6,440 bases of DNA from Candidatus Wukongarchaeum yapensis (GTDB lineage Archaea; Asgardarchaeota; Wukongarchaeia; Wukongarchaeales; Wukongarchaeaceae), in the NCBI GenBank assembly GCA_016840425.1, contig JAEOSI010000133.1, positions 1 to 6,440 of the forward strand. The letters are read 5' to 3'. A model generated the notes under the pieces. The model worked only from the letters and a program-made list of their open reading frames with translations. It was not told where the DNA came from and did no database searches. Shown piece after piece: positions 1 through 6,421 of the stretch; position 1 is the stretch's first letter; each line of letters opens with the position of its first letter. A program made the position numbers and the translations under genes.

Positions 1-1191
1 AACACTCACCATGAGGGTTACTGGGGAAAATATGATTTCTAAAGCGTCTTTTACAGGTCTTTTAACCCTATAAAACACGTTGAGGCCTATTCTTGCTCCC
101 ACTAAAACCCCTTTTGAGCTCATGTCTTGGAAATGATAGCTTAAAGTTGAGGGGGCTACTTCTAGCTTTTGCAAGAGTTCTTGGCCTGTAACTCCTTTCT
201 GGATTGTAGCGAAACTTCCCCGGATGACTACGCTTTCTAAGATCTCTCTTTTTGTTTTACTAAAATTTAGTTTGCCTTCCACTATTTGTCGTGCTACGTC
301 GAAACCTAAAGCTCGGGCGGAAAAATCTACAATATCTTTATCTATCATGTCTTTTCCAAAATCGTGGGCTTGTCGCATACATTCACGGGCAATATAAAGG
401 GCTAATCCTGGTAATCCGAAGGAATGCTCGGCGATAAGGTTTAATGATTCTTCGGTGAAAGGCGTGATTTCAGCATCTTTTAACTCCTTGGTAAAGTTTT
501 CCATTCTTACAGAGTCCATTCGAGCCTTTAAGAGGCAGATGATCTCCTCCTTTTTCATCGGCCTGATCCATAAAACGTCTGCAAAAAATTCGTCCTTGAT
601 TTCTGGCATGTCTTGTAACATTAAAGCGTAGACAAGGGGAGAGAGAACACAAACAATGCAGAACGGTTTTTCTCCCACTTCTGCACGAATTTCTCTACAA
701 TATACGTCTAAACGTTCTAAAACCGCATCAGCATGATCGATTATTAAAATAGAAGTTTTAGAAAAGTCTGTGTCTACAAGCCATTGGTCGAATCCGTTCT
801 TAAAATCAGTTTTTTCGCCTTTATCAGGTTTCCCATTGTTATGGTTCAAAATCCAGGATTTAGCATCAATATAATCAGCCATATAGCCTGATTTTTCCAT
901 CTCTTCATTAAATAGACGAGCAGCATGTTTTAGGGCGATTGTTTTTCCCACATCTCCTGGACCTACTACTAAAAAGCCTGTGTTTGACTTAATACATCGG
1001 GCCATTTTTTCAACCACCGATATCAAGGGATCCTTTCTTTCGTAAAAGGAGTATTCATTTTTATCGGGCAAATTATCGCTGAAGGGATCTTCTGAAAACC
1101 CAAAGGCTGCGAAGGGCATTGTGGGAACTATTCCCTCTTCAAGCCCCCGTCTAATGGCTTCTTTTACAGCACGTTTAATATCTTGGGACAA
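1..1191 (-). CDS. AAA+ ATPase (ExeA/AAA_22-like) with C-terminal ArsR-type winged HTH; 3'-partial, at least 397 aa
   Basis: Hand translation of the minus strand gives an uninterrupted frame from TTG at 1191 to the window edge: MSQDIKRAVKEAIRRGLEEGIVPTMPFAAFGFSEDPFS...FLVVGPGDVGKT (Walker A, nt 940-963)...SILIIDHAD (Walker B region, nt 727-753)...IRPMKKEEIICLLKARM...FTEESLNLIAEHSFGLP (lid)...ELLQKLEVAPSTLSYHFQDMSSKGVLVGARIGLNVFYRV (wHTH, nt 64-180). The SD-like GGTGAGGT lies 7 nt upstream. It is absent from the ORF track, probably because there is no stop codon inside the window. Confidence 0.88.
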   Translation of the reverse strand, partial: MSQDIKRAVKEAIRRGLEEGIVPTMPFAAFGFSEDPFSDNLPDKNEYSFYERKDPLISVVEKMARCIKSNTGFLVVGPGDVGKTIALKHAARLFNEEMEKSGYMADYIDAKSWILNHNNGKPDKGEKTDFKNGFDQWLVDTDFSKTSILIIDHADAVLERLDVYCREIRAEVGEKPFCIVCVLSPLVYALMLQDMPEIKDEFFADVLWIRPMKKEEIICLLKARMDSVRMENFTKELKDAEITPFTEESLNLIAEHSFGLPGLALYIARECMRQAHDFGKDMIDKDIVDFSARALGFDVARQIVEGKLNFSKTKREILESVVIRGSFATIQKGVTGQELLQKLEVAPSTLSYHFQDMSSKGVLVGARIGLNVFYRVKRPVKDALEIIFSPVTLMVSV

Positions 1192-1198
1192 GGGAGAG

Positions 1199-1206
1199 AC
1201 CTCACC
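1199..1206 (-). promoter_or_regulatory. Ribosome-binding site of the AAA+-wHTH gene
   Basis: Minus strand reads GGTGAGGT, then 7 nt, then TTG at 1191. Confidence 0.8.
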
Positions 1207-1248: not shown

Positions 1249-1263
1249 TATTTAAAAATTTCG
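1249..1263 (-). promoter_or_regulatory. Archaeal BRE-TATA promoter of the AAA+-wHTH gene
   Basis: Minus strand reads CGAAA-TT-TTTAAATA. The TATA box matches the TTTAWATA consensus and lies 58 nt upstream of the start codon. Confidence 0.65.
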
Positions 1264-1276: not shown

Positions 1277-1389
1277 AATAAAAATATTGAAAAAACTCGA
1301 AAAACTTAACAAACAAAGATTAAACAAGAATAAAAAACAAAAAGGCGTTAAAACCAGAAAAAATGAAAAATAAACTCTTAAAGAATTTT

Positions 1390-1476: not shown

Positions 1477-2796
1477 TCAAAATACGGTGGAAACTTTTCC
1501 AATTTCTTCTCCATTCTCAAGCAGTTGAACAGTTCCAAGCTGTATCAGGCTAACCTCTTTTGGATCTTCACGAGTGTAAAGTGTTAAGTTTCTTTTCTCA
1601 TAATCTATAGACTTTAAAATGCCAATACCTTTATACTCAAAATCCACACCAAAAAGTCCCACAAGTAAATTTTCTAAATCCTTTTCAGACGAAACAATTA
1701 CCTCCCTTCCCTCCGACACCTCATTAGCATGAAAAACTATTTCTGAAACATCGCCCATACGAACCTTATCCCTAACAACAATTAGTAAAACCTCTTCTGT
1801 CAACGCGGTATGCAAAATTTTTACGCTTAGCTTTTCTTCTAAAAAGCTAATGACCTCTCTGGATAAAGGCGCCCCAACACCCACATTAAATTGCGTTATA
1901 AGTGGGCATTTGTCCAATGAAAGCTTTACAATTTTACCGCCTAAAAGATGTTTTGCAAAAGACATCTTTCGAAGCTCTTTTCGCTCTTCCATCGATCTTG
2001 ATCTTACATTTTCTGAGGCAGGAACTCTTTCTATTTTTAAACCAAGAAGTTCCAAGGGTTCAAGAAGTGATTCCAACGCTTCACCCTTTGGTAAAGCAAC
2101 TATTAAATCAGGGGTGATAAGGGAGGCTTTTTGAAATTTAAGCTCTCTTGCGTGCATTCCCCTCACAAAACCTGTTGTATCTATTATTATCGCGTCACAG
2201 TTTTGGGAAATAACTGTATCGACCATCTTTTTTACGCCTACCATCACCCTGTGAAAAACCCGGTTAGGCGAGGTATGACCGATAAAGTAACCGTCTTTTA
2301 ACTTGATTTGTGAGAGGAACTTTGCAAAATTTCCTTTTTCAACCACTCCAAGAGCTATTACAGTTGGAGGTCCTATGTTGCTTTGCCCGATGTCGGCGTC
2401 AATAATTCCCACCCTAAAGTTTTGTTTAAGAAGAAGGTTTGTTTGATATATTACAAAAGTACTTTTACCCGAGTCTACGTCGCCAATGACCATCATCGTT
2501 GCAGGTTTCTTGTTCTTAAAAGATTTTACTTTGAGGGAAAACTCCTCTCCTACCTTTTTCCAGAGGGGAGAAATTGTAGATTTTTCAATAATGTTGATTT
2601 TTCCCCCAGTTCCCAGAACGATTTCCAGTTTAATTGGGGTTAAAGCTTCAATTGGCAGACTTTTAAATCTTTGCACAACAATTTGTTCGTTTAGGGAGAA
2701 AGGTGCACCAAATATCTCTGCGGTACCCTCAACTATTTGAGCCCTTGCAGCACCTTCAAGTACTAAGGTATGACCCTCAGTTACCTCTTGAAACAA
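1477..2796 (-). CDS. clp1: Clp1/Grc3/Nol9-family polynucleotide 5'-hydroxyl kinase
   Basis: 439 aa. It has the P-loop MVIGDVDSGKST, the family motif IIDADIGQSNIGPP, IIIDTTGFVRG and the lid RSRSMEERKELR. About 100 aa of N-terminal domain (VLEGAARAQIVEGTAEIFGA) precede the P-loop, and a beta-rich C-terminal domain follows (LLVGL...GIGILKSIDY). TTG start with GGTGA 6 nt upstream. Confidence 0.9.
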   Translation of the reverse strand: MFQEVTEGHTLVLEGAARAQIVEGTAEIFGAPFSLNEQIVVQRFKSLPIEALTPIKLEIVLGTGGKINIIEKSTISPLWKKVGEEFSLKVKSFKNKKPATMMVIGDVDSGKSTFVIYQTNLLLKQNFRVGIIDADIGQSNIGPPTVIALGVVEKGNFAKFLSQIKLKDGYFIGHTSPNRVFHRVMVGVKKMVDTVISQNCDAIIIDTTGFVRGMHARELKFQKASLITPDLIVALPKGEALESLLEPLELLGLKIERVPASENVRSRSMEERKELRKMSFAKHLLGGKIVKLSLDKCPLITQFNVGVGAPLSREVISFLEEKLSVKILHTALTEEVLLIVVRDKVRMGDVSEIVFHANEVSEGREVIVSSEKDLENLLVGLFGVDFEYKGIGILKSIDYEKRNLTLYTREDPKEVSLIQLGTVQLLENGEEIGKVSTVF

Positions 2797-2987: not shown

Positions 2988-3506
2988 TCAAGGGTTATAC
3001 TTCATTAGCGTGGAGGATTTCTCCTTTTTGATCTTCTCTAAAGCCTCTTTCAAAGCTTTACGAACATCTTCGTCTTTATCCTTTAGAGCTTTTATAAGGG
3101 GTTCTACCGTCCTTTTATCCCCTATCTCTCCAAGAGTCCTTACTACTCCCCAGCGAACACCGTTATTTCCATCCTTTAAAGCTTCTATTAGGGCTTCTAC
3201 AGCCCTAGAATCCTCTATCCGTCCAAGGGCTCCTGCTGCTGCCCATCGAACACGCCAATCTTCATCTTTTAAAGCATGAATGAGAGGGGCAACAGCCCTA
3301 GAATCCCAAAGCCATCCAAGAGCCTTTGCAACCTTACCTCGAATATCCCTATCTTCATCCTTTAAAGCTTCTATAAGGAGTTCTACTGCCCAAGAATCAT
3401 CTATCTCAGCAAGAGCCTCTACTGCCTTCTTTCGGATATTCTTATTTTTATTCTTCAAATCCTTTATCAAGCTTTCAACATCTTTTTCAGCTTTCATTTT
3501 CTCCAC
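2988..3506 (-). CDS. HEAT-repeat (PBS lyase HEAT-like) protein
   Basis: Five 31-aa repeats with consensus V-x-x-LI-x-ALKD-x-D-x-x-VR-x-x-A-x-x-ALG-x-I-x-D-x-R-A. The start is either GTG at 3506 or ATG at 3497. An in-frame TAG at 3525-3527 limits upstream extension. Confidence 0.9.
   Translation of the reverse strand: MEKMKAEKDVESLIKDLKNKNKNIRKKAVEALAEIDDSWAVELLIEALKDEDRDIRGKVAKALGWLWDSRAVAPLIHALKDEDWRVRWAAAGALGRIEDSRAVEALIEALKDGNNGVRWGVVRTLGEIGDKRTVEPLIKALKDKDEDVRKALKEALEKIKKEKSSTLMKYNP
3020..3480 (-). repeat. 93-bp-period degenerate tandem repeat encoding the HEAT units
   Basis: TTTA(A/G)AGC recurs at 3082, 3175, 3268 and 3361, exactly 93 nt apart. The flanks are also similar (for example, TACAGCCCTAGAATC, AACAGCCCTAGAATC and TACTGCCCAAGAATC). 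The boundaries are approximate. Confidence 0.8.
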
Positions 3507-5548: not shown

Positions 5549-5761
5549 TTATTTTTCAGGTCTAACTATCAAATATCCTTTATCGATAAGCCAGTGATGA
5601 AATTGATAAGTCGTATATTTACACGCGGTTTTACAAATATTTCTGATTCTTTCGTACTCTTCAGAACCTTCTTCCTGGGCGTCCAAATCTAACTGAACCG
5701 GACATTTTACATCTTTACAAAACTCTCTTCTTTGATAATCCACGTAACCCGGAATTGACAT
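5549..5761 (-). CDS. Small hypothetical Cys/His protein (70 aa), putative metal-binding
   Basis: MSIPGYVDYQRREFCKDVKCP...ICKTACKYTTYQFHHWLIDKGYLIVRPEK, with C15-x4-C20, C43-x3-C47 and H55/H56. It is co-oriented with lsrF and ends 29 nt before it. It follows a BRE-TATA element. ATG at 5761 is preferred over GTG at 5773. Confidence 0.75.
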   Translation of the reverse strand: MSIPGYVDYQRREFCKDVKCPVQLDLDAQEEGSEEYERIRNICKTACKYTTYQFHHWLIDKGYLIVRPEK

Positions 5762-5814
5762 AGTACATCCCACATCTAAACTGGCTTTTTATCGTTTTTT
5801 CTAAGGTAATTTTA

Positions 5815-6010: not shown

Positions 6011-6421
6011 TTAGTCTGAGAAGGCTAATTTGACATCTTTGTCGAAAAGTAAATATCCTAGTATTATGAGTCCTATAACTACTCCTGCGACAGATCCGTA
6101 TGTTTCGGATTCCAAGCCTATAAGATATAGTTGGTAAGCACTAAAAACAATAACTGCAAGAGTTATTAATATTCCTAATGCCCTAGCCCACGATAGGGTA
6201 AGCCAGAAACCTATAGCCATAAGGAGGGCGAAAATACCTATAGCGATAGTTACATAACCTGCGTTCTTTATATCAGATTCGGTTACGTCTTCTATTTCTT
6301 CGGCGATTCCTGAAGGATCATCAATCATCATGGCTCCTACAGCTAAAAGAAATAGTGCGACTAGGAATCCTAATATGGATATTATGGTTATTCCTGCTGG
6401 CCTTGCATATTTAACTCCCAT
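6011..6421 (-). CDS. Hypothetical four-helix membrane protein
   Basis: 136 aa with four hydrophobic segments, an N-terminal RPAGITIISIL motif and an acidic loop (DDPSGIAEEIEDVTESD) between TM1 and TM2. A strong SD, AAGGAGGT, is at 6429-6436. Confidence 0.85.
   Translation of the reverse strand: MGVKYARPAGITIISILGFLVALFLLAVGAMMIDDPSGIAEEIEDVTESDIKNAGYVTIAIGIFALLMAIGFWLTLSWARALGILITLAVIVFSAYQLYLIGLESETYGSVAGVVIGLIILGYLLFDKDVKLAFSD

Follow-up and report, generated by a model that had tools for sequence, protein, structure and literature searches.

An Orc1/Cdc6-like AAA+ winged-helix protein of Asgard archaea as a putative switch of a NurA-HerA operon

The DNA analysed here (the window) comprises bases 1-6440 of contig C132 of Candidatus Wukongarchaeum yapensis, a contig that starts at base 1. 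Three genomes recur in the comparisons: that of this organism (G000), that of a sister species (G001) and one from the same order (G002). At the left end of the window, on the minus strand, lies a gene for a protein in which an AAA+ ATPase core is followed by a helical lid and a C-terminal winged helix-turn-helix (wHTH). The protein is called AAA+-wHTH below, and the promoter of its gene carries hexamers of the type TTCGAA that may serve as its own operator. The gene and its control region are made up as follows.

1-1191, minus strand: coding sequence of the AAA+-lid-wHTH protein, residues 1-397 of 399, with a TTG start at 1191-1189; the contig ends at base 1
1199-1206, minus strand: Shine-Dalgarno-like sequence GGTGAGGT, 7 nt upstream of the TTG; its GAGGT is also found in the sister species
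1249-1258, minus strand: TATA box TTTTTAAATA, including TTTAAATA at 1256-1249, with a TTTAAA core at 1256-1251
1260-1265 and 1269-1274, no strand assigned: two perfect TTCGAA hexamers 9 bp apart, a candidate operator overlapping the position of the B-recognition element (BRE)
1296-1301, minus strand: distal TTCGAG hexamer that precedes the pair by 27 bp (3 x 9), in the same phase, and is shared with the sister species

The minus-strand frame is open for 397 codons, starting with the TTG at 1191 and reaching the left edge of the window. It was omitted from the list of open reading frames (ORFs) because it runs off the end of the contig. In a public collection, orthologues with 95% identity are 399 amino acids (aa) long and end two residues past the last codon of the window, so just two codons and the stop are missing from the gene. 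Compared with the sister-species orthologue, 64 of 88 nucleotide differences fall at third codon positions, and 63 codons differ synonymously against 18 non-synonymously. This excess indicates purifying selection on the frame, which is a real gene. The TTG start is supported by the alignment of residues 1-25 with those of distant relatives (27-29% identity), in which G16 is invariant. A 397-codon frame with a Shine-Dalgarno sequence and a promoter had been the starting point of the original prediction, and GGTGAGGT, the TATA box and the 399-aa orthologues bear it out. A search of sequencing runs found near-identical DNA in marine-sediment, mangrove and marsh metagenomes of 12 studies and also, as a small share, in one metatranscriptome.

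An AlphaFold model computed from an alignment of 40 sequences (predicted local distance difference test score, pLDDT, 88.5; predicted template-modelling score, pTM, 0.85) consists of an N-terminal helix, a five-stranded P-loop core, a helical lid and a helix-turn-helix (HTH) with a β-hairpin wing. The same 40 sequences are the family members to which the conservation counts below refer. The parts of the protein are encoded, from N- to C-terminus, as follows.

1078-1113, minus strand: N-terminal family motif F27..F-G-F-x2-D-P-F37, residues 27-38, with a conserved helix before it at 3-19
562-1059, minus strand: AAA+ α/β core, residues ~45-210, with strands at 72-76, 104-109, 146-152, 178-183 and 203-208
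940-963, minus strand: Walker A GPGDVGKT, residues 77-84, intact in the window protein
727-750, minus strand: Walker B ILIIDHAD, residues 148-155, with D152 in 39 of 40 members
280-552, minus strand: helical lid, residues ~214-304, with a conserved PF (244-245) and G259-L-P-G262
31-258, minus strand: C-terminal ArsR-like wHTH, residues ~312-387, with recognition helix 347-359 (PSTLSYHFQDMSS) and wing hairpin 363-376

Structure comparison of the model points to the replication initiators. The best Foldseek matches were archaeal Orc1/Cdc6 proteins (1w5t, 2qby and 2v1u; E 2e-12 to 2e-11), which covered all three domains and were followed in order by RuvB, eukaryotic ORC1/Cdc6, SSO1545 and TnsC. 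VIA-align, an independent all-against-representatives structure alignment, placed Sulfolobus solfataricus Orc1-1 (2qby_A) at the top, with Z 18.5 over 300 residues (model residues 29-377). Drosophila Orc1 (Z 16.9), Aeropyrum pernix ORC2 and Pyrobaculum aerophilum Cdc6 (both Z 16.2) came next, and TnsC (Z 15.4) and then DnaA, MuB and PAB2304 (all Z 13.6) lay further down. An ExeA-type cluster matched far more weakly (template-modelling scores of 0.56/0.43).

Profile comparison gave a similar picture. Searched against the sequences of the PDB, the family profile matched RuvB (1e-13), Orc1-1 (1e-12) and TnsC (1e-11). When it was aligned by hhalign with the three canonical Orc1/Cdc6 proteins of genome G000, the probability was 98.2% (E 4e-14, 306 columns) and the match ran from residue 46 to 377, that is, from before Walker A through all three domains into the wing. 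Sequence identity to Orc1/Cdc6 is 12-16%. From the profiles and the model, the whole protein is a co-linear remote homologue of Orc1/Cdc6 across the AAA+ core, lid and winged helix. That the family descends from Orc1/Cdc6, or is its sister, is the best explanation of these matches.

The original prediction had read the protein as an ExeA-like core joined to a separate DNA-binding domain. This is ruled out by its three-domain co-linearity with Orc1/Cdc6, found by both hhalign and VIA-align. The parts themselves were seen correctly: the quoted N-terminal motif, the AAA+ core and the lid are present, family-conserved and visible in the model, and the C-terminal region does fold there as an ArsR-like wHTH (helix 336-342, helix 347-359, hairpin 363-376). 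It was also right to set the protein apart from canonical Orc1/Cdc6. None of the 40 members matches the curated models Cdc6_C (PF09079) or Cdc6_lid (PF22703), and the three canonical genes, which match PF09079, lie elsewhere in the genome, so an ordinary Cdc6 is likewise ruled out. Judged by these curated models, the protein falls outside the Orc1/Cdc6 family. Its description as a protein of unclear family also stands: Pfam gives no match at E ≤ 0.1 and NCBIfam only sub-threshold ArsR-type matches (residues 329-390), among them NF041413 (E 2e-6, 28 bits where the cut-off is 155) and NF033788 (E 4e-5, 23.4 bits where it is 55).

The N-terminal motif F30-G31-F32-x2-D35-P36-F37 is well kept, with G31 in 34, P36 in 38 and F37 in 37 of the 40 members. 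Position 83 of Walker A is K in 26 members, R in seven and another, non-basic residue in seven. The position of the catalytic Glu (153) is H in the window protein and N in 17, D in 13, H in five and E in two members (N, D or H in 35 of 40). In the alignment with the genome's own Orc1/Cdc6 proteins, Walker B falls on LDEAD and the lid motif G259-L-P-G262 on GDAR; since G262 aligns with the Arg of GDAR, the sensor-2 Arg is replaced by Gly (position 262 is G in 26, R in five and K in three members). No Arg-finger candidate is conserved between strands 4 and 5 among the 40 members. Sensor 1 is kept (S184; S or T in 28 of 40), as are the ArsR-like helix S348-T-L-S-Y-H353 and the wing. At the position of the Orc1 initiator-specific motif (ISM) the model has a four-residue helix (112-115) and then a loop (118-130) with pLDDT < 50, in a region that is acidic, variable and gap-rich across the family. 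A family without the residues for fast ATP hydrolysis best explains these patterns. In the window protein the module probably still binds nucleotide and is unlikely to be a fast ATPase. In the earlier description as a nucleotide-regulated DNA-binding protein, nucleotide regulation is uncertain, the hydrolysis motifs being degenerate throughout the family.

The family is small. An exhaustive HMMER scan of 1.8 billion cluster representatives found 86 family representatives at E ≤ 1e-3 (30 at E ≤ 1e-10), nearly all of them 370-450 aa long and matched end to end. All named members come from Asgard archaea: four carry public names, from Promethearchaeota, Heimdallarchaeota and Hodarchaeota, and are labelled 'hypothetical', 'helix-turn-helix domain-containing' or 'ArsR/SmtB family transcription factor'. 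Among 400 genomes of the phylum, a profile built from the 40 members gave strong full-length matches (E < 1e-50) in seven GTDB families. Members were present (E ≤ 1e-8) in 29 of 31 genomes of one GTDB family and in 22 of 22 of another, and tandem paralogue pairs were frequent. Genome G000 has a single copy. Pfam lists 25 families for the 40 members, with weak, generic matches to AAA_16, AAA_22, HTH_5, HTH_20 and nSTAND. AAA_22 (PF13401) was matched by 15 of the 40 at E ≤ 1e-3 (best 1e-6) and HTH_5/HTH_20 by seven to eight. No PADLOC model matches AAA+-wHTH, a search of PDB sequences with the protein alone gave nothing below E 0.045, and a literature search found no paper on the family or on an archaeal TTCGAA operator.

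The hexamers at the promoter are in register with its TATA box, the TTTAAA core coming exactly 9 bp after the proximal TTCGAA. Relatives with 25-30% identity, whether on metagenome contigs or in other GTDB families, likewise have TTCGAA-like hexamers upstream, two to four of them at 9-bp spacing, and in at least eight lineages the TATA box lies 9-10 bp after the last repeat. Scored as two hexamers 9 bp apart with no more than one mismatch in total, within 220 nt upstream, such a pair was found in 10 of 16 lineages as against 15 of 9663 control windows of G000 (0.16%); among AT-rich control windows it was found in 3 of 1686. Other spacings from 6 to 13 bp were nearly absent, those of 6-7 and 10-13 bp essentially so. 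Four further lineages have a variant hexamer of the type (A/G)TCGAG, spaced at 9 bp or a multiple in three of them and 19 bp apart in one. The recognition helix of these lineages starts with R-S-T, not P-S-T, and an altered helix paired with a shifted hexamer is how co-evolution of protein and site would look.

TTCGAA occurs 647 times in the 2.16-Mb genome, and the exact 9-bp pair occurs once, at this promoter. The full triple of repeat, repeat and TATA is found here and at one other site, C195:1968, where the in-phase triple lies inside a radical-SAM coding region. The sole other close TTCGAA pair in the genome (C199:8396-8409) has 8-bp spacing; a TTAAAT box follows closely, and the divergent spacer that holds the pair precedes a gene for 142 aa. 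Both this pair and the C195 triple are consistent with chance, about one pair being expected genome-wide, although the C199 pair might be a second site. Over the ~95 nt that run from the repeats at this promoter to the start codon, 2 positions differ between the two species of the genus, as compared with 16% at third codon positions. The array has been kept despite divergence of the protein, which argues against neutral spacer sequence, and it accompanies the gene across lineages whose other neighbours differ.

The array lies in a spacer of 285 bp (1192-1476) with 29% GC and a strong AT skew. Long T-runs on the gene strand are probably archaeal terminators for clp1, ahead of the AAA+-wHTH promoter. 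Cumulative GC skew has no inflection at the spacer. The rest of the window holds the following genes beside that for an aldolase.

1477-2796, minus strand: Clp1-type P-loop protein, 439 aa (CLP1_P, E 7e-38), a putative polynucleotide kinase and the upstream neighbour
2988-3506, minus strand: HEAT/PBS-lyase-repeat protein, 172 aa (HEAT_2, E 1e-38)
5549-5773, minus strand: Cys-rich ORF, 74 aa, of no family, ahead of the DeoC/LsrF-type aldolase gene
6011-6421, minus strand: DUF7144-like membrane protein at the right edge

The sequence beyond the left edge was read from the sister species and from another contig of the same genome. In G001 the Clp1-type neighbour is kept and is followed by AAA+-wHTH, a 39-nt gap, a 415-aa NurA-domain protein, an overlapping gene for a 580-aa HerA/DUF87 ATPase and an Lrp/AsnC regulator. 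Contig C176 of G000 begins at residue 27 of this NurA (93% identical) and continues into HerA, indicating that the ends of C132 and C176 abut with ~126 nt missing. G000 has three NurA-HerA pairs (on C191, C101 and C176; L026-L029, L075-L077) as well as further DUF87 ATPases. With NurA domain scores of 64.8, 36.3 and 24.0 bits for the three pairs, the one linked to AAA+-wHTH is the most divergent. The linked HerA matches PADLOC HerA models, and the linked NurA has no match in PADLOC or among PDB sequences. No clear match to the Rad50 zinc-hook was found in G000.

In G002 the order is AAA+-wHTH, a 300-aa protein, NurA and HerA. On a metagenome contig (L016) that carries a member with 31% identity, NurA, HerA, Cas4 and Dna2-like genes diverge from the same intergenic region as the AAA+-wHTH gene; behind the latter lies a homologue of the 300-aa protein of G002. 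In several relatives the gene for a ~290-aa protein overlaps the 3' end of the AAA+-wHTH gene (L016:7185-8045, L020:7247-8149 and L015:2759-3451). This genus lacks the protein, which matches nothing in Pfam or PADLOC and falls in the Atlas into unnamed clusters only; it may be a partner subunit. A subclade of three members (P0007, P0008 and P0012) has, instead of NurA-HerA, a ~327-aa protein, a PD-(D/E)XK protein, a superfamily 1 (SF1) helicase and Cas4. The cassette is at L062:4961-11537, L063:5184-12395 and L068:651-4347, its PD-(D/E)XK protein being ~435 aa and its helicase ~410 aa long. It diverges from an Eco57I-type methyltransferase gene, beside type I and other restriction-modification (R-M) genes and an integrase, and together with the methyltransferase it looks like an undescribed restriction-like defence module. 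The linked cargo is often a set of DNA nucleases and helicases.

Elsewhere the surroundings are different. FtsX/ABC transporter genes, with a convergent NYN nuclease, adjoin distant members. Tandem diverged paralogues share one repeat-bearing promoter at L017:9222-11708 (G040), L079:7956-10447 (G094) and L080:7130-9585 (G100), an arrangement that was seen in two GTDB families and suggests heteromeric pairs; in G094 the pair is followed by a 140-aa Mrr_cat nuclease. One distant member (P0013) adjoins an IS21-type pair, probably by coincidence. In G000 and the sister species the flanks are of a housekeeping kind (Clp1, pyruvate kinase and CobS), with no methyltransferase. No transposase was found in the window or in 14 kb of the sister genome, and no MCM, primase or integrase in the window or at the sister locus.

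Linkage to the NurA-HerA operon and the conserved operator indicate a likely role for AAA+-wHTH. We regard it as fairly probable that the protein is an autoregulated DNA-binding switch of this operon, analogous to Orc1-2 of Sulfolobales. Its ArsR-like winged helix would read TTCGAA hexamers that recur every 9 bp and run into the BRE and TATA box of its own promoter, and several protomers would load side by side along the phased array. The AAA+ and lid module would act as an assembly or nucleotide-binding switch rather than as a motor. Occupancy of the array next to TATA-binding protein (TBP) and transcription factor B (TFB) would then set transcription of the operon, which here would comprise the AAA+-wHTH gene, the divergent NurA nuclease and the HerA ATPase, all expressed from this promoter. 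AAA+-wHTH would thus control an accessory module for DNA-end processing as its dedicated switch. The most likely direction of the predicted regulation is repression, because the array overlaps the BRE and abuts the TATA box (in one subclade the repeats lie downstream of TATA). Activation through recruitment of TBP/TFB is a possible alternative.

A wider version of this proposal is put forward tentatively and is itself doubtful. In it, a widespread Asgard family derived from Orc1/Cdc6 would have given up the part of ATPase motor or initiator and turned into a promoter-resident switch, its protomers lined up on 9-bp TTCGAA iterons whose last copy stands exactly one unit ahead of the TATA box. 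The array would physically take over the BRE and TATA box, or hand them over to TFB and TBP. The switch would thereby gate accessory modules for DNA-end processing or defence, of which NurA-HerA and Dna2-like/Cas4 are examples.

Several observations weigh against an autoregulated switch of NurA-HerA. The lineages compared are related, and a count of 10 in 16 overstates their independence. The operator-like array is absent or different in some members (g3 and g5), and in g36 it lies ~190 nt upstream. Within the proximal repeat, the half CGAAA resembles an ordinary archaeal BRE, and some other factor might bind the candidate repeats. Since one member in three has lost the Walker A Lys, nucleotide switching cannot be a general property of the family. 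Linkage to NurA-HerA is limited to the nearest subclade; neighbours elsewhere vary (ABC/FtsX, NYN, Mrr or PD-(D/E)XK with SF1 and Cas4), and the regulated cargo is therefore not constant.

The alternative that survives best, an unlikely one on balance, is a loader or adaptor: AAA+-wHTH would bind DNA and recruit or license HerA-NurA (or Dna2-like/Cas4), the promoter repeats being a side function. Orc1/Cdc6 with MCM and TnsC or MuB with transposases are models for such a protein, and its structural neighbours (Orc1/Cdc6, TnsC at Z 15.4, MuB and DnaA at Z 13.6) are all DNA-bound recruiters. Nuclease or helicase genes adjoin family members in three different arrangements, and the ~290-aa protein overlapping the 3' end of the gene in relatives is placed like a partner subunit. 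However, the partners differ from member to member, and around many members nucleases and helicases are lacking. The conserved Arg finger and sensor-2 Arg that canonical AAA+ assemblies use are missing, and the ISM region, a DNA contact in Orc1, is here an acidic, variable loop of low confidence. A loader of this kind is compatible with autoregulation as well.

It is improbable that the protein is a sensor or regulator subunit of an anti-virus or restriction-like defence module, in which foreign DNA or a damage signal releases nuclease-helicase effectors. Such a role would suit the subclade of P0007, P0008 and P0012, where the gene heads the operon for the 327-aa protein, PD-(D/E)XK, SF1 helicase and Cas4, divergent from the Eco57I-type methyltransferase and near type I R-M genes and an integrase. 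It would also suit HerA, whose paralogues are known defence ATPases and which, in the linked form, is recognised by PADLOC. PADLOC has nothing for AAA+-wHTH or the linked NurA, however, and the housekeeping flanks of G000 and its sister include no methyltransferase. Presence in 22/22 and 29/31 genomes of two GTDB families is more like that of a core gene than of a sporadic defence gene.

Still less probable is that a different factor, or a special BRE arrangement, accounts for the TTCGAA array, with the targets of AAA+-wHTH lying elsewhere. The fit of CGAAA in the proximal repeat to the usual archaeal BRE would be explained in this way. Yet the array travels with the gene across lineages with differing neighbours, is unique in the genome and, where it takes the shifted form (A/G)TCGAG, goes with R-S-T recognition helices. 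Least probable of all is an initiator of a secondary origin or integrated element, with the 9-bp repeats as iterons or boxes resembling origin recognition boxes (ORBs): the Orc1/Cdc6-like fold, the iteron-like direct repeats beside the gene in an AT-rich 285-bp spacer (29% GC) and the usual position of archaeal origins next to orc1/cdc6 genes would agree with it, but there are only two to four repeats, phase-locked to the TATA box of this very gene, the T-runs are what terminators for upstream clp1 would look like, MCM, primase and integrase are lacking nearby, the ATPase motifs are degenerate, three canonical Orc1/Cdc6 genes lie elsewhere and GC skew does not turn at the spacer.

The family is now named and bounded, where public records had hypothetical, HTH or ArsR labels. 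It also offers a directly testable pair of protein and site, TTCGAA at 9-bp phase abutting the TATA box; to our knowledge almost no transcription factor of these organisms has a known site. A link between AAA+-wHTH and a paralogous DNA-end-processing operon is plausible, and a dedicated regulator for one of three NurA-HerA pairs would suggest separate, conditionally expressed roles of the copies. Asgard NurA proteins are entirely uncharacterised, with several copies in some lineages (2026 review, PMC13748450).

Of the known systems, ExeA/GspA-type AAA_22 ATPases share with AAA+-wHTH a P-loop core of the same AAA+ group and an N-terminal G-F-x3-P-F motif, which we take to recall that of ExeA. 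Their match covers the ATPase core alone, as does that of TnsC, whereas that of Orc1/Cdc6 covers three domains. Unlike ExeA, AAA+-wHTH has a winged HTH at its C-terminus, with no peptidoglycan-binding region or secretion context, and its neighbours are Clp1 and NurA-HerA. It differs from TnsC, TniB and MuB in having no transposase or recombinase partner in the window or at the sister locus. A STAND NTPase was considered and rejected: the 399-aa protein ends in the wHTH with no long sensor or repeat region, and the nSTAND/AAA_16 matches in the cores of relatives are weak.

The recognition helix and wing resemble ArsR models, and many ArsR repressors have operators that overlap the promoter, as the candidate operator does here. 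The likeness to ArsR/SmtB is one at domain level, with scores far below cut-offs. An ArsR protein is a stand-alone dimer of ~100 aa, whereas the domain forms here the C-terminal fifth of a 399-aa AAA+ protein.

Orc1/Cdc6 initiators (2qby_A; A. pernix ORC1/ORC2, 2v1u and 1w5s) have the same order of AAA+ core, lid and winged helix, and in both cases repeated DNA boxes adjoin the gene. In the present family, however, the DE of Walker B has become D followed by H, N or D, GDAR has become GLPG, an acidic loop occupies the place of the ISM helix and the winged helix is ArsR-like (S-T-x-S-Y-H-L). The repeats, too, are phased to a promoter and are probably not origin boxes.

The best functional analogy is Orc1-2 of Sulfolobales, a non-initiator Orc1/Cdc6 and global regulator of the DNA-damage response, which binds an ANTTTC hexanucleotide in promoters of that response and acts on its own gene (PMC6061795). 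ATP binding switches Orc1-2 on and hydrolysis, which is essential, switches it off (PMC9738581). Common to both would be the use of the Orc1/Cdc6 architecture as a promoter-binding regulator of genes related to DNA repair, through a hexanucleotide near BRE/TATA, as is predicted here. Orc1-2, which has an ISM, belongs to the Orc1/Cdc6 family proper and differs from AAA+-wHTH in its active ATPase and large regulon. AAA+-wHTH lies outside the curated family and has degenerate hydrolysis residues, an ArsR-like recognition helix, a phased array and a candidate site at a single promoter in the genome. An initiator-fold AAA+-wHTH used as a regulator would be of a known kind, while the Asgard family and its phased repeat site appear to be new, and would provide, beside Orc1-2, a second example of the reuse of initiator architecture for regulation.

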